DNA of 64,000 bases. It comes from Escherichia coli. GTDB taxonomy: Bacteria; Pseudomonadota; Gammaproteobacteria; Enterobacterales; Enterobacteriaceae. Shown piece by piece: positions 17,020-52,572 of this stretch. Made by a program: the position numbers and the translations under genes. The DNA lies in NCBI RefSeq assembly GCF_050320075.1, contig NZ_CP190018.1. One strand, written 5' to 3'. The notes beneath the pieces were generated by a model. The model was not told the DNA's origin. It made no database searches and saw nothing but the letters and a program-made list of their open reading frames with translations. Every line of letters begins with the position of its first letter. The first letter of the stretch is position 1.

Positions 17020-18375
17020 TTATTTCAAGTCGGGTAAGTCGTTGTATAAGCCCTGTTTAATTCCCGCTAATGGAATAAGGTTATTAACCGCAGCGGCATA
17101 ATTCACTGCGGCGACCCAGCCATCATAATTGGCATTTATTTCAGCCGATTGCGCCTGAAAGACATCTTGCTCGACGGTTAATAGATCATTCAGGCTGCGT
17201 TTACCCAATTTATATTCATTTTGGTAGACATCTCGCGTTCTGTGCGCACTTTCAGATTGCGCTAACCCAGCCTCTTCACGACCCCGTGCGCCTGTCCAGT
17301 TGGCATATGCCACAGACGCTCGTTGCAGCACATCCAGTTTTGCCTGTTCGACCTGCGAGGCAGAGATTTTTTGTTGCCCTTCAGCCTGTTGCACCTGGGC
17401 AGAAACCGCGCCGCCCTGATACAGCGGCGCGTTAACGTTCAGTTGTAGCTGATCATCCCAATACGAGCGGTCGCTGGTCTGGTAGCGCGTTTTGCCCCCC
17501 TGAATACTCAGCGTTGGCCAGTATTGCGCTTTCGTTTTTTCCACGCCGTACTGTGCTGACTGGCGTAAGTTTTCTGCCGCCAGCACCAGCGGGATGGACT
17601 GGTAATCAATATTTTTCAGCGATACCGGCTGCTCGGCTAATTCAGCAGGTGGCGCGGCTATCGCCTCCGGCTGTACGCCAGTGAGCACCGCCAGTTGCGC
17701 TTTGGCGCTTGCCATCTGCGCCTGATATTGCTCCAGCGTTGAGCGCATTCCGGCAATGCGCGTCTGGGCCTGTAATTCATCCGACGACGAGTTCAGGCCA
17801 GCGTTAGCACGCAATGCTGCCATGTTGTAGACGTTTTCCAGCGAGTGAATATTGCGTTGAGCCGCATCGCACAAAGCCTGATAACGACTGACTTCCATAT
17901 AGGCAGTCGCCGTTTTCTCTGCAACATCGGTTAAGGTTGCCATCAATTTAAAGCGGTAGCTGTCACGGGCGGCAGTTTGCAGTTTGATATCGTTGTTAGT
18001 TTTACCAAAGTCATACACCAGCTGTGTCAGGGTTATGCCATACGAAACGTTGTTATCAAGCCTGCCACTGGAGTCCGTTTGTCGGGACGGTCCCGCATTG
18101 CCGGTTAATCCAACGTGCGGATACCAGGCACTTTTGGCTTCATCAATTTGCGCTTCGCCAATACCTATCTGCGCCGCCTGTTGAGTGACGTCGGGATTTC
18201 GCGCAAAGGCGCGTAATATACTTTCCTGTAAAGATAATTGGGCAACTGGCGTTACCGCTGGGGCGTTCGCCCATTGTGGCAGCGGTGCAGCAATTGTAGC
18301 TTCTCCCATCACCATAAAACTTATTAAAAAAATAAACCCATTATTTTTACGGCTTTTAAACTGGAATCGCGCCAT
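17020..18375 (-). CDS. TolC-family outer-membrane efflux/secretion protein (probable T1SS outer-membrane factor)
   Basis: 451-aa ORF with N-terminal signal-peptide-like segment (MARFQFKSRKNNGFIFLISFMVMGEATIA) and coiled-coil-rich Q/A/L composition typical of outer-membrane factor proteins; AGGAAG about 10 nt upstream; same strand and 108 bp upstream of the giant adhesin start. Confidence 0.7.
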   Translation of the reverse strand: MARFQFKSRKNNGFIFLISFMVMGEATIAAPLPQWANAPAVTPVAQLSLQESILRAFARNPDVTQQAAQIGIGEAQIDEAKSAWYPHVGLTGNAGPSRQTDSSGRLDNNVSYGITLTQLVYDFGKTNNDIKLQTAARDSYRFKLMATLTDVAEKTATAYMEVSRYQALCDAAQRNIHSLENVYNMAALRANAGLNSSSDELQAQTRIAGMRSTLEQYQAQMASAKAQLAVLTGVQPEAIAAPPAELAEQPVSLKNIDYQSIPLVLAAENLRQSAQYGVEKTKAQYWPTLSIQGGKTRYQTSDRSYWDDQLQLNVNAPLYQGGAVSAQVQQAEGQQKISASQVEQAKLDVLQRASVAYANWTGARGREEAGLAQSESAHRTRDVYQNEYKLGKRSLNDLLTVEQDVFQAQSAEINANYDGWVAAVNYAAAVNNLIPLAGIKQGLYNDLPDLK

Positions 18376-18680
18376 AGATAAGTCACTTCCTTCCAGGTCA
18401 TTATTTTAACTGGTTTTTATAACTAGTCTCATTTTATTAAGAAGGGTAATAACTTGTGCATCTCTTTTGTCGATCATTGATATTGGCAAAGAAATGCAGC
18501 TAAAAAGCTTATACGTTATTTATTTAGAATACACTACGACTTTTAGATTACCATCATACACATTAAGAATAATCCACGGCAATAAGTGATTAGCATCACA
18601 GATTTATCGCGTATATATCATTTTTTTGTGACTTATTTATTAAAGGAATAAGAAAGGTAATTTGAATTAAAGACAAAGGC

Positions 18681-18712: not shown

Positions 18713-20005
18713 TTATACGGTTTTATTGCGCTTCATGACCATTGCCACAATAAGGCTGAGTAAGATTGCACCAATAATCCATATCAACGCACGGCTGCCC
18801 TGGGACCACAGGCTGTAGATAAAGCCAATGATCACCAACAACATCACCAACGTACCAACGATAAGAATCGGCAACAAGGCGTGAATATCATGACGCAGGC
18901 GGATCGCCACCACAAACACCGCCAGATAGCAGATCAAAAAGGTGGCGCTGGCAACGCTGGCGAGTGAGCCTAAATTCAGCGCCGCCGTCATCAGCATAAT
19001 CAGCACCACGACAATGATGTTGCCCCAGGTACTCTGCCGCCACAGGGATTTATTCATTAGCTTCGGCAGTTCGCGTTCGCTGCCCATGTTGTCCATGATG
19101 TTAAACACGGCGAACAGGTTCGCGTTGATGGCTGAAGCCGTCGCCAGTAAAGCGCCGATGACGACGATCACATAACCCACATGCCCGAGCAGCGGAGAAG
19201 CTGCCTGCGCTACGGCGGTATCGGCATATTTTTCTAACTCTAAAGCCGATACATCGCTAAGCAAAACCAGCGCCAGCGAGATATAAAGCAACGTGGTAAC
19301 GCCAATCGCCACCAGAAACGCCCGTGGCATAATGACCTGCGGATCTTTCACTTTATCCGCCGCGTTCGCCATCATGCCAAAGCCCGCATAGGCAAGGAAG
19401 GTTATCCCGATACAGGAGAAGAACGCACCGGAGCTGGGGGGCGCAGAGACAGAAATATGCGCCGGTTGCAGCGACCAGACACCGGCAATAATCAGCAATA
19501 ACAGGATCATCATTTTAATGCCGACGAGGATCACTTCCAGCCGCCCTACCGCATGGTTGCTTAAGGAGTTGAAAAGCGTCATCACCGCAATGATCCCCAA
19601 CGCGTAGAGCAATATAAGGTGCTCCTCCTGGCTGCCTTCATGCAAAAACTGCACGGCATAAGCGCCAAAAGCACGGGCGACCATGGCGATGCTCACCGCC
19701 AGCGTCAACAGGTACAGTAACGAGAGCGCCAGCGAAAAGACGCCGTTGCCTAATCCGCGACGAAAGAAGTCGATAATACCGCCATTGCTGGGATAGCTCG
19801 CCCCCAGGCGCGCATAGGCATAACCGGAAAACATCGCCACAATACCGCCAAATGCAAAGGCGACCCAGGTCGAGGCTTCCATTAGCAACGCAGCCTGCCC
19901 CAGCAGCGCGAAGATCCCCGCCCCCACCATTGCCCCAATACCGATGGAAACGACGTTCCATAGACCGAGGGGTTTGTTACCGTTATTACCTTCCGTGTTC
20001 ATCAT
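18713..20005 (-). CDS. ybaT: APC-family amino acid permease YbaT
   Basis: 430-aa polytopic membrane protein ORF; start codon 2 nt from the glsA stop (operon with glsA). Confidence 0.9.
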   Translation of the reverse strand: MMNTEGNNGNKPLGLWNVVSIGIGAMVGAGIFALLGQAALLMEASTWVAFAFGGIVAMFSGYAYARLGASYPSNGGIIDFFRRGLGNGVFSLALSLLYLLTLAVSIAMVARAFGAYAVQFLHEGSQEEHLILLYALGIIAVMTLFNSLSNHAVGRLEVILVGIKMMILLLLIIAGVWSLQPAHISVSAPPSSGAFFSCIGITFLAYAGFGMMANAADKVKDPQVIMPRAFLVAIGVTTLLYISLALVLLSDVSALELEKYADTAVAQAASPLLGHVGYVIVVIGALLATASAINANLFAVFNIMDNMGSERELPKLMNKSLWRQSTWGNIIVVVLIMLMTAALNLGSLASVASATFLICYLAVFVVAIRLRHDIHALLPILIVGTLVMLLVIIGFIYSLWSQGSRALIWIIGAILLSLIVAMVMKRNKTV

Positions 20006-46230: not shown

Positions 46231-46319
46231 CCATAGCACGACGATAATATAAACGCAGCAATGGGTTTATTAACTTTTGACCATTGACCAATTTGAAATC
46301 GGACACTCGAGGTTTACAT

Positions 46320-47513
46320 ATGAACAAAAACAGAGGGTTTACGCCTCTGGCGGTCGTTCTGATGCTCTCAGGCAGCTTAGCCCTAACAGGATGTGACGAC
46401 AAACAGGCCCAACAAGGTGGCCAGCAGATGCCCGCCGTTGGCGTAGTAACAGTCAAAACTGAACCTCTGCAGATCACAACCGAGCTTCCGGGTCGCACCA
46501 GTGCCTACCGGATCGCAGAAGTTCGTCCTCAAGTTAGCGGGATTATCCTGAAGCGTAATTTCAAAGAAGGTAGCGACATCGAAGCAGGTGTCTCTCTCTA
46601 TCAGATTGATCCTGCGACCTATCAGGCGGCATATGACAGCGCGAAAGGCGATCTGGCGAAAGCCCAGGCTGCAGCCAATATCGCGCAATTGACGGTGAAT
46701 CGTTATCAGAAATTGCTCGGTACTCAGTACATCAGTAAGCAAGAGTACGATCAGGCTCTGGCTGATGCGCAACAGGCGAATGCTGCGGTAACTGCGGCGA
46801 AAGCTGCCGTTGAAACTGCGCGGATCAATCTGGCTTACACCAAAGTTACCTCTCCGATTAGCGGTCGCATTGGTAAGTCGAACGTGACGGAAGGCGCATT
46901 GGTACAGAACGGTCAGGCGACTGCGCTGGCAACCGTGCAGCAACTTGATCCGATCTACGTTGATGTGACCCAGTCCAGCAACGACTTCCTGCGCCTGAAA
47001 CAGGAACTGGCGAATGGCACGCTGAAACAAGAGAACGGCAAAGCCAAAGTGTCGCTGATCACCAGTGACGGCATTAAGTTCCCGCAGGACGGTACGCTGG
47101 AATTCTCTGACGTTACCGTTGATCAGACCACCGGGTCTATCACCCTACGCGCTATCTTCCCGAACCCGGATCACACTCTGCTGCCGGGTATGTTCGTGCG
47201 CGCACGTCTGGAAGAAGGGCTTAATCCAAACGCTATTTTAGTCCCGCAACAGGGCGTAACCCGTACGCCGCGTGGCGATGCCACCGTACTGGTGGTTGGC
47301 GCGGATGACAAAGTGGAAACCCGTCCGATCGTTGCAAGCCAGGCTATTGGCGATAAGTGGCTGGTGACAGAAGGTCTGAAAGCAGGCGATCGCGTAGTAA
47401 TAAGTGGGCTGCAGAAAGTGCGTCCTGGTGTCCAGGTAAAAGCACAAGAAGTTACCGCTGATAATAACCAGCAAGCCGCAAGCGGTGCTCAGCCTGAACA
47501 GTCCAAGTCTTAA
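46320..47513 (+). CDS. acrA: RND efflux periplasmic adaptor (membrane fusion protein) AcrA
   Basis: 397-aa product starting MNKNRGFTPLAVVLMLSGSLALTGC (lipoprotein signal with lipobox Cys); internal ATG at 46320. Confidence 0.95.
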   Translation: MNKNRGFTPLAVVLMLSGSLALTGCDDKQAQQGGQQMPAVGVVTVKTEPLQITTELPGRTSAYRIAEVRPQVSGIILKRNFKEGSDIEAGVSLYQIDPATYQAAYDSAKGDLAKAQAAANIAQLTVNRYQKLLGTQYISKQEYDQALADAQQANAAVTAAKAAVETARINLAYTKVTSPISGRIGKSNVTEGALVQNGQATALATVQQLDPIYVDVTQSSNDFLRLKQELANGTLKQENGKAKVSLITSDGIKFPQDGTLEFSDVTVDQTTGSITLRAIFPNPDHTLLPGMFVRARLEEGLNPNAILVPQQGVTRTPRGDATVLVVGADDKVETRPIVASQAIGDKWLVTEGLKAGDRVVISGLQKVRPGVQVKAQEVTADNNQQAASGAQPEQSKS

Positions 47514-47532: not shown

Positions 47533-50685
<3,153 letters not shown>

Positions 50686-50702
50686 TACAACGTGTAATCA
50701 CA

Positions 50703-50727
50703 AAGGCCGCGCAAGCGGCCTTTTTTA
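50703..50727 (+). terminator. Rho-independent terminator after acrB
   Basis: aggccgc-gcaa-gcggcct hairpin followed by TTTTTTA. Confidence 0.6.
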
Positions 50728-51230
50728 TGCATAACCGACGAACATTAAGGAGTCATTGAACCACCAACTCAGGATCTCATACGAAAACCAGTATTAACCT
50801 CGCATAAAATTCATAAAAAATACTGATTGTTAGTTAATTTATATTAAGTAGCGCTAATAAATTTAATAATCCATAATCATTTAGAGGCTATTCTTAATTA
50901 TTTGCGGTAATTCTTTATTCATTCCTCGGTTATTACGTCATATTCAGAGCAATCCTGGTATTAGTGTCACCAATTTCATCTGGCGATAATCCTGAAATGT
51001 TATGAATAGTTCGAGCAGACTGCTTTTACCTACTGCGGGTTAGTGCTAGTATGAAAAAATGAGTCCTGTCCCGATTCCTTCCTAATTGTAATTTTTCGTA
51101 ATAATGCGATGAAAACCTGCAAAGAGTGGCTTATAGTTAAGCTAACAAACGAGAGGGCAAGTCCAGGTCAGTAAGTTTTTTCCATCCCGAAAGGTGTCCG
51201 TTAGTTCAACCACTAAGAAGGGGACGCGTT

Positions 51231-51605
51231 ATGGATGAATACTCACCCAAAAGACATGATATCGCACAGCTTAAGTTTCTCTGTGAAACCCTGTATCATG
51301 ACTGTCTTGCAAACCTTGAAGAAAGCAATCATGGCTGGGTTAACGACCCAACCTCGGCGATCAACCTCCAGTTGAATGAACTGATTGAGCATATTGCGAC
51401 CTTCGCACTTAATTACAAAATTAAGTATAATGAAGACAATAAGCTCATTGAGCAGATCGACGAATATCTGGATGACACCTTTATGTTGTTCAGCAGTTAT
51501 GGTATTAATATGCAGGATCTTCAGAAATGGCGGAAGTCAGGTAATCGACTATTCCGTTGTTTTGTCAATGCGACGAAAGAGAATCCTGCGAGTTTATCTT
51601 GTTAG
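51231..51605 (+). CDS. tomB: Hha toxicity modulator TomB (YbaJ)
   Basis: 124-aa ORF immediately upstream of hha. Confidence 0.9.
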
Positions 51606-51630
51606 AATTATTACAACCATGGGTAGAAGT

Positions 51631-51849
51631 ATGTCCGAAAAACCTTTAACAAAAACCGATTATTTAATGCGTTTACGTCGTTGCCAGACAATTGACACGC
51701 TGGAGCGTGTTATCGAGAAAAATAAATACGAATTATCAGATAATGAACTGGCGGTATTTTACTCAGCCGCAGATCACCGCCTCGCCGAATTGACCATGAA
51801 TAAACTGTACGACAAGATCCCTTCCTCAGTATGGAAATTTATTCGCTAA
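51631..51849 (+). CDS. hha: Haemolysin expression modulator Hha
   Basis: 72-aa product [75 protein letters not shown] at 51631 inside a longer out-of-context ORF. Confidence 0.92.
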
Positions 51850-52020
51850 TAAATAATTCGCTTTCGGAGCTATAACCGGCTGTTTATTAAGAATTTTATA
51901 CTTTTTCGCCATGAAGACGTACCCTATGTGATCTTTATCACACAGATGTAATGGGAACGTTCTCTTCACTGACTTTTCGTCTTACTGTGTTGCCGCATTT
52001 TCAGCAACCGGAGGTCAGTA

Positions 52021-52572
52021 ATGAGCACAGAAAAAGAAAAGATGATTGCTGGTGAGTTGTATCGCTCGGCAGATGAGACGTTATCTCGCGATCGCCTGCG
52101 CGCTCGTCAGCTTATTCACCGATACAATCATTCCCTGGCGGAAGAGCACACATTACGCCAGCAAATTCTCGCTGATTTATTCGGTCAGGTGACAGAGGCT
52201 TATATTGAGCCAACGTTTCGCTGTGATTATGGCTATAACATTTTTCTCGGCAATAATTTTTTCGCCAACTTCGATTGCGTGATGCTTGATGTCTGCCCTA
52301 TTCGCATCGGTGATAACTGTATGTTGGCACCAGGCGTTCATATCTACACGGCAACACATCCCATCGACCCTGTAGCACGTAATAGCGGTGCTGAACTGGG
52401 GAAACCCGTCACCATCGGTAATAACGTCTGGATTGGCGGACGCGCGGTCATTAACCCTGGTGTGACCATTGGTGATAACGTCGTGGTAGCCTCAGGTGCA
52501 GTTGTCACAAAAGATGTCCCGGACAACGTTGTCGTGGGCGGTAATCCAGCCAGAATAATTAAAAAATTGTAA
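52021..52572 (+). CDS. maa: Maltose O-acetyltransferase (hexapeptide-repeat acyltransferase)
   Basis: 183-aa ORF with left-handed beta-helix hexapeptide repeats ([14 protein letters not shown]...[25 protein letters not shown]). Confidence 0.9.

Follow-up and report, generated by a model that had tools for sequence, protein, structure and literature searches.

The 545-bp acrB–tomB spacer of Escherichia coli as a probable control region of tomB-hha

In Escherichia coli, the operon tomB-hha is preceded by several hundred base pairs of very AT-rich DNA that separate it from acrB, and the question raised by this locus is what that DNA does. In the window analysed here, a stretch of 64,000 nucleotides of E. 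coli DNA, a first-pass annotation had described the spacer as an unusually long leader of tomB-hha, likely to be a target of nucleoid proteins (H-NS/Hha) and possibly hiding a small RNA or a leader peptide. The reading that we favour, with a probability of about 0.8, is that the spacer is the intergenic control region of tomB-hha, consisting of a terminator, an AT-rich tract, a promoter, and a 5' UTR of about 87 nt, and not a long transcribed leader.

Boundaries of the spacer and the acrB terminator

The elements that frame the spacer are as follows.

47536–50685, plus strand: acrB coding sequence (an open reading frame of 1049 aa; the homologous K-12 locus is annotated acrB).
50702–50726, plus strand: intrinsic terminator of acrB (9-bp stem AAAGGCCGC/GCGGCCUUU, GCAA loop, then a U tail).
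51231–51849, plus strand: operon tomB-hha (tomB 51231–51605, hha 51631–51849; open reading frames, K-12 annotation, and the Pfam families YbaJ and HHA on relatives).

The stop codon of acrB ends at 50685 and the ATG of tomB is located at 51231, positions that confirm the extent originally given for the spacer (50686–51230, 545 bp, upstream of tomB-hha). Of 5426 complete E. coli genomes, 5423 contain this spacer, and it carries no annotation. The corresponding region of K-12 (ybaJ-hha) is the same locus, with a spacer of the same 545 bp and about 98% identity to the window; there it occupies 480,709–481,253 of U00096.3, read on the minus strand. Although the window represents a different E. coli lineage, the substitutions are few and none of them is found in the boxes or hexamers described below, so that nothing essential differs. 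The H-NS flag and the listed regulators CpxR and PdhR are likewise common to the K-12 region and the locus in the window.

The stem-loop and U run that follow acrB begin 17 nt past its stop codon and have the form of an intrinsic (Rho-independent) terminator. The 46-nt stretch that contains them folds with -19.3 kcal/mol, compared to -8.6 kcal/mol for shuffled sequences (z = -4.6), and the element is kept in 20 representative spacers from about 18 genera, with a compensatory variant of the stem (GGTCGC/GCGACC) in Citrobacter amalonaticus. Folding and conservation thus establish the terminator, which had already been noticed on first inspection, as real. A simple terminator scan of the spacer returned no matches, a false negative for this element, as folding showed. 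The probable cause is that the first Ts of the tail are taken up by A-U pairing at the foot of the stem.

Core promoter, CpxR-type box, and 5' untranslated region

The part of the spacer closest to tomB contains three adjacent elements.

51083–51103, plus strand: nearly invariant block TAATTGTAATTTTTCGTAATA, which contains the CpxR-type tandem repeat GTAAT-N5-GTAAT (51088–51102).
51109–51137, plus strand: core promoter of tomB-hha (-35 ATGAAA 51109–51114, 17-bp spacer, -10 TATAGT 51132–51137; start predicted at about 51144).
51144–51230, plus strand: predicted 5' UTR of tomB, about 87 nt (conserved CCAGGTCAGT; CCATCCC 51182–51188; Shine-Dalgarno sequence AAGGGGA 51218–51224).

The promoter, located about 95 bp upstream of tomB, scores 9/12 in the promoter scan, and its hexamers and their spacing are those of a sigma-70 promoter (16–18 bp). 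The scan of the region found four such sites versus 4.2 expected by chance, so that it is conservation and the literature that identify the promoter. The -10 hexamer TATAGT is invariant in 78 Enterobacteriaceae spacers, and in every one of these with an exact CpxR-type box it lies 44–45 bp downstream of the start of the box. Identical hexamers have been published as the constitutive sigma-70 promoter of tomB-hha (PMC3946193), the arrangement ATGAAA-17-TATAGT being the same in the window as in the K-12 region (genomic SELEX, Shimada et al. 2014; RegulonDB/EcoCyc). Peaks of sigma-S ChIP and of SELEX cover the promoter-proximal spacer, and the sigma-S ChIP peak corresponds to approximately 51048–51243. 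In Salmonella, out of 1 kb of upstream DNA, only the tomB-proximal fragment drives GFP expression, whereas the distal fragments with predicted promoters are inactive, and deletion of the proximal fragment mimics hha and tomB mutants (PMC5133643). Erwinia amylovora keeps the module of box and promoter, although its upstream gene is different and the long spacer is absent. Judged by its sequence, the core promoter with the CpxR-type box is ancient: it does not vary across Enterobacteriaceae and can still be recognised in Erwinia.

The length predicted for the leader, about 87 nt, follows from the position of this promoter, which is the only well-supported one, with the start inferred from the -10 hexamer. 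The remaining ~400 bp are predicted to be upstream DNA and not transcribed leader. A leader of 545 nt, as first proposed, does not agree with a sole well-supported promoter at 51109–51137, nor with the activity of only the proximal fragment in Salmonella. As far as sequence and literature tell, the locus has a single start near tomB and no conserved structured segment, the very outcome that the first-pass annotation had named as speaking against its proposal.

The box upstream of the promoter reads GTAAT-TTTTC-GTAAT (51088–51102) and agrees with GTAAA-N5-GTAAA, the CpxR operator motif, in four of five positions of each half, with the canonical gap of 5 nt; the CpxR consensus is quoted as TTTAC-N4-8-TTTAC in PMC13353760. 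The box, GTAATTTTTCGTAAT, adjoins the -35 hexamer and is identical in 65 of the 78 spacers; it differs by one base in the representative of C. werkmanii (C. freundii complex), and it reads GTAATTTTTAGTAAG in Erwinia amylovora. In Yersinia pseudotuberculosis, phosphorylated CpxR binds and activates the promoter of the orthologous operon, ymoBA, which has a CpxR motif positioned 56 bp upstream of TSS2 (PMC13353760). This distance between motif and main start is also that between the start of the E. coli box (51088) and the predicted start at 51144, and this geometry, together with the presence of the box in Erwinia amylovora, suggests that the boxes of Yersinia and E. coli are homologous. The two operons differ in that the UTR of ymoBA is 106 nt long, compared to the 87 nt predicted for tomB, and that in Yersinia a second start has been mapped at -188.

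The combination of a poor -35 hexamer, a good -10 hexamer, and a tandem repeat centred at about -49 agrees with a promoter that phosphorylated CpxR activates during envelope stress. RegulonDB names CpxR as a regulator of both tomB and hha, and tomB is included in the CpxR iModulon; in ChIP-exo, tomB is not listed among the direct CpxR targets (PMC7657598). Expression of tomB rises 6–11 fold on inhibition of LolCDE, alongside Cpx and Rcs genes (rcsA, wza-type, cpxP).

In Klebsiella, RamA up-regulates hha-ybaJ, an effect that might instead stem from acrAB transcripts reading through. A MarA/RamA marbox considered within the invariant block was rejected by eye as a poor match.

The predicted 5' UTR contains the conserved sequence CCATCCC (51182–51188), which is complementary to the Shine-Dalgarno sequence and start codon of tomB, and pairing between them would create a hairpin controlling translation, for example a thermosensor. 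CAUCCC is complementary to GGGAUG of the Shine-Dalgarno region, and among 19 representatives 92% of cells pair in this register, versus 17–67% in slid registers. In the RNAalifold consensus, CCAUCCC is paired with the Shine-Dalgarno sequence and AUGG, and the minimum free energy fold of the E. coli UTR also encloses the Shine-Dalgarno sequence. A role of temperature would agree with the behaviour of Hha/YmoA systems, which are temperature-responsive, YmoA being degraded at 37 °C (cited in the Yersinia ymoBA paper, PMC13353760). However, RNAalifold and the pair counts yield no compensatory changes, since both sides of the pairing are nearly invariant, and the consensus energy is only -3.2 kcal/mol. 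In addition, the single-sequence fold of the E. coli UTR is no better than that of shuffled sequences (z = -0.38), the Shine-Dalgarno sequence of E. coli reads GGGGAC, which breaks one pair, and the loop of the hairpin would comprise some 30–50 nt. We consider a translation-control hairpin unlikely.

AT-rich upstream DNA

Between the terminator and the CpxR-type box, the following segments can be distinguished.

50728–50820, plus strand: AT-rich insert found only in Escherichia (a gap in all non-Escherichia rows of the alignment).
50821–50943, plus strand: most AT-rich core of the upstream region (GC 29–33%; delimited in alignments; target of IS1 in some strains).
50944–50957, no strand assigned: RcsAB-box-like palindrome (degenerate TCAGAGCAATCCTG in E. 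coli, TAAGAATATTCCTA-type in other genera).
50959–50975, no strand assigned: PdhR-box-like palindrome TATTAGTGTCACCAATT (12/14 to AATTGGTnnnACCAATT; specific to E. coli).
50992–51012, plus strand: conserved block (CTAAC-N3-ATGAA-N4-TAAGG in other genera; majority fraction 0.65 versus 0.43 in the flanks).
51044–51052, plus strand: weak candidate for an extended -10, TGcTAGTAT (in only 4 of 20 representatives, those of E. coli, Citrobacter, and Salmonella).

The GC content amounts to 29–33% at 50700–51000 and to 37.6% for the spacer overall, compared to 54.3% for the 64-kb window. The lowest value for 300 bp within the spacer, 31.3%, marks the second lowest stretch of the 64 kb, with 0.17% of 300-bp windows being as low. 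TpA steps are 2.7 times as frequent as on average in the window, and AA/TT dinucleotides show a 10.5-bp periodicity that is reached by 0.5% of shuffled sequences, a fraction uncorrected for the five periods tested. The very AT-rich stretch pointed out at the beginning is thus real and exceeds chance, and in composition, TpA content, and periodicity the spacer has the character of the AT-rich, TpA-rich, curved DNA expected of an H-NS region. The genomic SELEX table marks the tomB-acrB spacer with an H-NS flag (PMC3946193), which together with the extreme composition makes the suggested nucleoid-protein (H-NS/Hha) target plausible. The AT-rich core contains no good match to the high-affinity H-NS motif TCGATAAATT, whose sole match with two mismatches within the spacer is found at 51090–51099 on the minus strand, on the CpxR-like block. 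We infer that spreading of H-NS is the reason for the AT-rich spacer.

Length (435–559 bp) and GC content (35–40%) of the spacer are similar in all 76 loci measured, which represent about 20 genera. The AT-rich part itself is essentially unalignable between genera, with an identity of 31–45% (about 31% in 50958–51082), so that only the size and composition of the upstream tract have been maintained. The insert at 50728–50820 is divergent even in E. albertii, E. whittamii, and Escherichia sp. E1V33. The core that follows (50821–50943) is well kept within Escherichia, and it includes short blocks (CTTATTG, a TATAAT-like block, and GGCTATTCTTAATT) common to some other genera. Such short conserved islands persist inside the AT-rich part despite its mostly unconserved sequence. 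Strain Nord58 carries IS1 in the spacer, with a 9-bp target duplication of 50864–50872, and in one strain an IS1-associated deletion has removed most of the spacer.

These features might be read to mean that the AT-rich DNA outside the core promoter and UTR is neutral filler, its low GC content the result of unconstrained drift, with no regulatory role. Near-random identity between genera over much of its length would agree with this, as would the ~90-bp Escherichia-only insert, which shows that indels are tolerated, the tolerated IS1 insertions and deletion, and the complete absence of the spacer in Erwinia. Bacterial genomes are nevertheless subject to a deletional bias, in spite of which the narrow range of length and GC content has been held in 76 of 76 loci. 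The conserved islands and the H-NS flag at the spacer (PMC3946193) also argue against neutral filler, which we regard as improbable.

A spacer that is long, non-coding, and unannotated could also encode a small RNA or a leader peptide that has so far escaped annotation. An Rfam scan of 50000–52500 at permissive E-values gave a best E-value of 0.27, and the best as well as most of the weak matches, among them all of the few in the spacer or close to it, fell on the acrB terminator. Inside the spacer, no terminator-like element is found downstream of a promoter-like site, as a small-RNA gene would require. Two open reading frames could be considered as candidates for a leader peptide, one of 13 codons that starts with TTG behind a perfect AAGGAG (50756–50797) and one of 21 codons that starts with ATG (51109–51174). 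The former, however, belongs to the Escherichia-only segment and is already broken in E. albertii, whereas the latter has its first codon in the -35 hexamer and thus ahead of the predicted start. Among 277 open reading frames of at least 8 aa in 20 spacers, no family has a consistent start, frame, or Shine-Dalgarno sequence, and the block 50992–51012 is not the start of any conserved one. The apparent families LLRKITI and VIFRN were rejected, since they arise when the invariant DNA block is translated in different frames, at different lengths, and on different strands, in most cases with no Shine-Dalgarno sequence. The initial remark that no convincing open reading frame with a Shine-Dalgarno sequence was present is upheld by this survey. 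A hidden small RNA or leader peptide finds no such backing in the Rfam result, in DNA unalignable between genera, or in spurious open reading frame families, and we consider it very improbable.

Palindromes in the upstream DNA and the control of tomB-hha

Each of the 78 spacers has a match to the core of the palindrome at 50944–50957, NN[AG]GA-N4-TC[CT]NN, and nearly always this match lies at about the homologous place. The consensus of the RcsAB box is reportedly TaAGaatatTCctA, a 14-bp palindrome with the core TN[AG]GA-N4-TC[CT]NA. Compared to this consensus, the palindrome of Kluyvera is an exact match and those of most genera agree in 12–14 of 14 positions, whereas TCAGAGCAATCCTG of E. coli keeps the GA-N4-TC core but agrees in only 9 of 14. 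The palindromes of Salmonella and Kluyvera read TAAGAATATTCCTG and TAAGAATATTCCTA, respectively. With at most two mismatches, TAAGAATATTCCTA is matched at -400 to -220 from the tomB ATG in 54 of 80 loci, versus three matches elsewhere in 410 kb. In many genera, a second half-site of Rcs type is located about 35–60 bp upstream of the palindrome.

Capsule operons (wza/cps, Erwinia ams) have this 14-bp palindrome, TaAGaatatTCctA, as their RcsAB box. The tomB site differs from theirs in its variable location relative to the promoter (about 190 bp in E. coli, mostly 156–187 bp across loci), as well as in the degenerate copy of E. coli. RcsB is the presumed binder of the palindrome, and the literature searched contains no link between tomB and the Rcs regulon. 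This conserved RcsAB-box-like operator is the one lead that may be new, if a minor one.

The adjacent palindrome, TATTAGTGTCACCAATT, conforms to the PdhR-box motif, and its core is the only match with one mismatch to ATTGGTNNNACCAAT in 64 kb. K-12 has the identical sequence, whereas degenerate versions are found in other Escherichia species. According to reviews, PdhR directly controls tomB-hha (PMC3265435). A PdhR gSELEX peak from 2020 corresponds to approximately 50393 in the window, inside acrB and about 570 bp from TATTAGTGTCACCAATT, and its authors assigned a different site, which matches in 8 of 14 positions.

Alternatively, one or more additional promoters within the AT-rich part could give rise to some tomB-hha transcripts with a leader of about 170–235 nt and regulatory content of its own. 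The PdhR box, with its 12 of 14 matches, lies about 170 bp upstream of the main promoter, and such a position would be more natural for a repressor with a promoter nearby. The candidates are the extended -10 TGcTAGTAT (51044–51052) and a PdhR-controlled promoter near GATAAT (50985–50990). The extended -10 in E. coli would place a start about 85 nt before the main one, and in Yersinia ymoBA 82 nt separate the two starts that have been mapped (-188 and -106 from the ATG; PMC13353760). An additional promoter might also have to do with the otherwise unexplained conserved block at 50992–51012, for which no convincing match to a FliA, RpoE, or RpoH promoter was found. Against such a promoter, the extended -10 occurs in just those 4 of 20 representative spacers, the DNA that separates the candidates from the core promoter cannot be aligned, the distal Salmonella fragments are inactive (PMC5133643), and the extra leader would have neither a conserved open reading frame nor a conserved structure. 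We regard additional promoters as doubtful.

In the reading as an intergenic control region, the strong intrinsic terminator would end transcription of acrAB, and the ~360 bp of very AT-rich non-coding DNA that follow would be the probable landing and spreading platform of H-NS, with Hha as its co-factor. Regulators bound at the operator islands (of RcsB/RcsAB type in most genera, of PdhR type in E. coli) might adjust this silencing or work against it. The core promoter with its CpxR-type repeat would be activated by phosphorylated CpxR under envelope stress, and transcripts would begin with the ~87-nt 5' UTR that ends in a strong Shine-Dalgarno sequence.

A more specific proposal, which is possible and which we put forward tentatively, is that the AT-rich tract constitutes a silencing and anti-silencing module, in which H-NS and Hha would coat the ~360 bp upstream of tomB-hha and exert negative feedback on the production of Hha, and in which the palindrome of RcsB type, with its second half-site in many genera, would allow the Rcs envelope-stress phosphorelay to relieve the silencing. 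Most Enterobacteriaceae would then place tomB-hha under joint control by Cpx and Rcs, in Escherichia part of the Rcs input would have disappeared and the PdhR box been acquired, and the anti-Shine-Dalgarno sequence of the UTR might add translational control. A similar arrangement is that of bgl and leuO, whose H-NS-silenced AT-rich upstream regions are relieved by an activator of the RcsB family (RcsB-BglJ). Like these, tomB-hha appears to be preceded by AT-rich DNA flagged for H-NS, in which a palindrome of RcsB type lies far upstream of the core promoter. Unlike them, it is a core gene pair that was not horizontally acquired, the palindrome is degenerate in E. coli, and both binding and anti-silencing are putative.

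The control region of tomB-hha is ordinary and largely already known, with no new kind of element, and the analysis yields a comparative map of a promoter region that had been catalogued before. Hha, itself modulated by TomB, serves the global silencer H-NS as a co-factor; the amounts in which Hha and TomB are made therefore affect the silencing of virulence genes, biofilm formation, and persistence in enteric bacteria. The Rcs-like operator, if real, would tie the production of this H-NS co-factor to the Rcs envelope-stress response.

Composition and extent of the acrB–tomB spacer

The 545-bp stretch reported by the first-pass annotation coincides exactly with the spacer between acrB and tomB (50686–51230), already known as the promoter region of tomB-hha (ybaJ-hha). 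Of 5426 complete E. coli genomes, 5423 contain this spacer, for the most part with 95–99% identity, and it is devoid of any RefSeq annotation. The window is E. coli chromosomal DNA, and its + strand also bears maa, ylaC, and pdeB. The features discussed below are as follows.

Features of the acrB–tomB region
46284–47513, +, acrA
47536–50685, +, acrB
50702–50726, +, acrB terminator: 9-bp stem AAAGGCCGC/GCGGCCUUU, GCAA loop, then Us
50959–50975, PdhR-box-like TATTAGTGTCACCAATT, 12/14 match, directly adjoining the palindrome in E. coli
51088–51102, CpxR-type tandem repeat GTAAT-TTTTC-GTAAT, 10-bp period
51109–51137, +, tomB-hha promoter ATGAAA-17-TATAGT (promoter scan)
51231–51605, +, tomB
51631–51849, +, hha

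Several database proteins of ~185–205 residues (P0005, P0008, P0010, P0026, and others) contain both YbaJ (TomB) and HHA Pfam domains, and look like either TomB-Hha fusions or read-through products that were mis-called in some E. coli assemblies.

The terminator noted previously is real; the 46-nt stretch around it folds with −19.3 kcal/mol vs −8.6 ± 2.3 for shuffles (z = −4.6). It is kept in 20 representative spacers (~18 genera), where one variant, GGTCGC/GCGACC, is compensatory. It escaped a consensus terminator scan, probably as A-U pairing at the base of the stem uses up the first Ts of the tail.

The AT-richness claimed for the spacer is equally clear, with a GC content of 29–33% at 50700–51000 vs 54.3% in the window. 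Positions 50806–51105 form the second lowest-GC 300 bp in the 64 kb (only 0.17% of 300-bp windows reach so low a value), and TpA steps are 2.7 times as frequent in the spacer as the window average. The 10.5-bp periodicity of AA/TT is matched by 0.5% of shuffles; with five periods tested and the figure uncorrected for them, the evidence for curvature is mild. In every one of 76 loci the spacer has a length of 435–559 bp and a GC content of 35–40%, and the identity to E. coli is just 14–45% in most AT-rich segments (~31% at 50958–51082), with 50728–50820 confined to Escherichia in the alignments. Such divergent DNA might be neutral filler, a reading that we regard as distinctly improbable; instead, spreading of H-NS/Hha could be the reason why size and composition, not sequence, were kept.

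At 28.7% GC, positions 18378–18677 are the lowest 300 bp of the window and more extreme than the acrB–tomB spacer; they belong to a ~340-bp AT-rich spacer between the minus-strand ORFs 17020–18375 and 18713–20005. The first ~16 kb (~60% GC) have almost no listed ORFs because one giant ORF extends beyond the start of the window. This ORF corresponds to part of siiEA, a giant adhesin gene (BapA-related) that 958 of the 5426 complete E. coli genomes carry, with 2–8 matching places per genome due to its internal repeats.

An intact acrB–tomB spacer is missing in ~15 of the 5423 genomes, and in some strains IS1 sits in its most AT-rich part (L082, NZ_CP139846.1; L083, NZ_CP128912.1). In strain Nord58, otherwise 100% identical to the window, IS1 is accompanied by a 9-bp target duplication of 50864–50872. 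In strain TUM13773, IS1 replaces most of the spacer, of which 30% is left; only ~72 bp separate the transposase gene from tomB, which has therefore probably lost its native promoter.

The core promoter and the CpxR-type box

The match to ATGAAA-17-TATAGT alone means little, since the promoter scan found four sites vs 4.2 expected by chance. Identical hexamers were described by Shimada et al. as the constitutive σ70 promoter of tomB-hha in the tomB–acrB spacer, with an H-NS flag (PMC3946193). A σS ChIP-seq peak (K-12 479,920–480,115, converting to ~51048–51243 in the window; PMC4447067) covers this area, and an RpoS SELEX peak also falls in the spacer. Among 80 loci fetched from ~20 Enterobacteriaceae genera, all 78 spacers examined contain TATAGT, which lies 44–45 bp downstream of the start of GTAATTTTTCGTAAT wherever that exact box occurs, and 32 of the 58 columns at 51083–51140 are invariant in a 20-sequence alignment.

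With the −10 hexamer ending at 51137, we infer that tomB transcription starts near 51144, which predicts a leader of ~87 nt; the 545-nt leader proposed earlier does not agree with this published and conserved promoter. Salmonella data agree with this promoter: of three promoters predicted in the 1 kb upstream of tomB, the proximal one alone gave GFP expression, and strains lacking it resembled hha and tomB mutants (PMC5133643). Additional upstream promoters would yield a longer leader, which we consider rather unlikely. Inside tomB, upstream of hha, TTCGCA-18-TATAAT (10/12, 51402–51431) is the best σ70-like match in the scanned region. Both the RpoD and the RpoS SELEX tables also place a peak inside tomB before hha, which makes an internal promoter for hha possible.

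The repeat GTAAT-TTTTC-GTAAT matches the CpxR consensus GTAAA-N5-GTAAA in 4/5 + 4/5 positions (quoted elsewhere as TTTAC-N4-8-TTTAC, PMC13353760). The orthologous ymoB-ymoA operon of Yersinia pseudotuberculosis has starts at −188 and −106, with a CpxR motif 56 bp upstream of the latter; its fragment is shifted by CpxR~P, and promoter activity increases on Cpx activation. In E. coli, the distance from the start of the box to the predicted transcription start is also 56 bp. RegulonDB includes tomB and hha among CpxR targets; tomB is also a member of the CpxR iModulon (PMC7657598), although it is absent from the direct CpxR targets listed by ChIP-exo in the same study.

In Erwinia amylovora, the upstream neighbor of tomB is not acrB and the long spacer is absent, yet CTGTAATTTTTAGTAAG is retained, with a −10-like TATATT at an unchanged offset behind it. 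The module of ~150 bp comprising the box, promoter, and UTR is therefore old, and the long AT-rich tract is an addition found in Enterobacteriaceae. In E. amylovora, tomB is directly preceded by an unannotated 117-residue ORF (locus L084, 1004–1357) with no Pfam match, whose stop codon overlaps the CpxR-type box.

Conserved islands within the AT-rich tract

Short conserved islands sit within the AT-rich tract (50728–51082) in the alignment, the clearest being a palindrome at 50944–50957, which resembles the RcsAB box (TaAGaatatTCctA). Its sequence is TAAGAATATTCCTG, TAGGAATATTCCTA, TAAGAATATTCTTA, or CAGGAATATTCCTG in most genera, and in Escherichia it is degenerate (TCAGAGCAATCCTG, 9/14). With at most two mismatches, TAAGAATATTCCTA occurs between −400 and −220 from the tomB ATG in 54 of 80 loci, and elsewhere only three times in 410 kb of both strands. 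A second site, half or full (ATTCTTAATT), lies 35–60 bp upstream in many genera. The distance to the CpxR-type box varies (mostly 156–187 bp, outliers 85 to 220), thus, for the main promoter, the palindrome is not an activator site of the classical promoter-proximal kind. No link between tomB and the Rcs regulon was found in the literature searched. Inhibition of LolCDE raises tomB 6–11 fold, alongside rcsA, capsule genes, and cpxP, which is compatible with Rcs or Cpx input without separating them.

The core of TATTAGTGTCACCAATT is the sole one-mismatch PdhR box match in the window; K-12 has the identical box, and the other species of Escherichia a degenerate one. Direct PdhR control of tomB-hha has been reported, but the assignment of this box is uncertain because the 2020 gSELEX peak converts to a position inside acrB, ~570 bp away. 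A further block, CTAAC-N3-ATGAA-N4-TAAGG (~50992–51012), is conserved ~50 bp downstream of the palindrome in most genera (loci L006–L081), with no convincing fit to an ORF, a σ-factor consensus, or a known operator.

Coding potential, RNA signals, and a proposed arrangement

The suggestion that the spacer could hide a small RNA or a leader peptide found no support. A permissive Rfam search gave weak matches only (best E = 0.27), the best and most others lying on the acrB terminator, and scans found no terminator-like site and no minus-strand promoter-like site inside the spacer. Clustering of 277 ORFs of at least eight codons from 20 spacers produced families only around the invariant DNA block (51083–51103), whose members differ in start, length, frame, and strand and seldom have an SD. 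We therefore conclude that the spacer has no conserved small gene, and an encoded sRNA or peptide is extremely unlikely. One candidate, a 13-codon AAGGAG-TTG ORF (50756–50797), lies in the Escherichia-only segment and is already absent in E. albertii.

The tomB 5′ UTR contains several conserved blocks in the alignment. Of these, CCAUCCC (51182–51188) could pair with the SD (GGGGAU) and with AUGG, to both of which it is complementary; RNAalifold chooses this pairing, and 92% of alignment cells are paired vs 17–67% in slid registers. However, the consensus energy is only −3.2 kcal/mol, the E. coli fold is not better than shuffles (z = −0.38), and the pairing has no covariation, since hardly any position varies on either side. 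A hairpin controlling translation is thus possible but unsupported, and an anti-SD translational switch as an additional layer seems unlikely.

We propose that the spacer is the control region of tomB-hha, composed of the terminator, an AT-rich platform, a CpxR-assisted promoter with a weak −35, and a short UTR. The palindrome may serve as an operator of the RcsB type that either counters silencing or acts on a minor upstream promoter. Promoter identity, H-NS flagging, RNAP/σS occupancy, and CpxR and PdhR regulation come from the literature, and the promoter, the H-NS flag, and both regulators were already public in databases and papers; the anatomy, the conservation pattern, and the lack of coding or RNA-family signals were established here. 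The new leads are modest, namely the comparative map and an RcsAB-like operator kept outside Escherichia.
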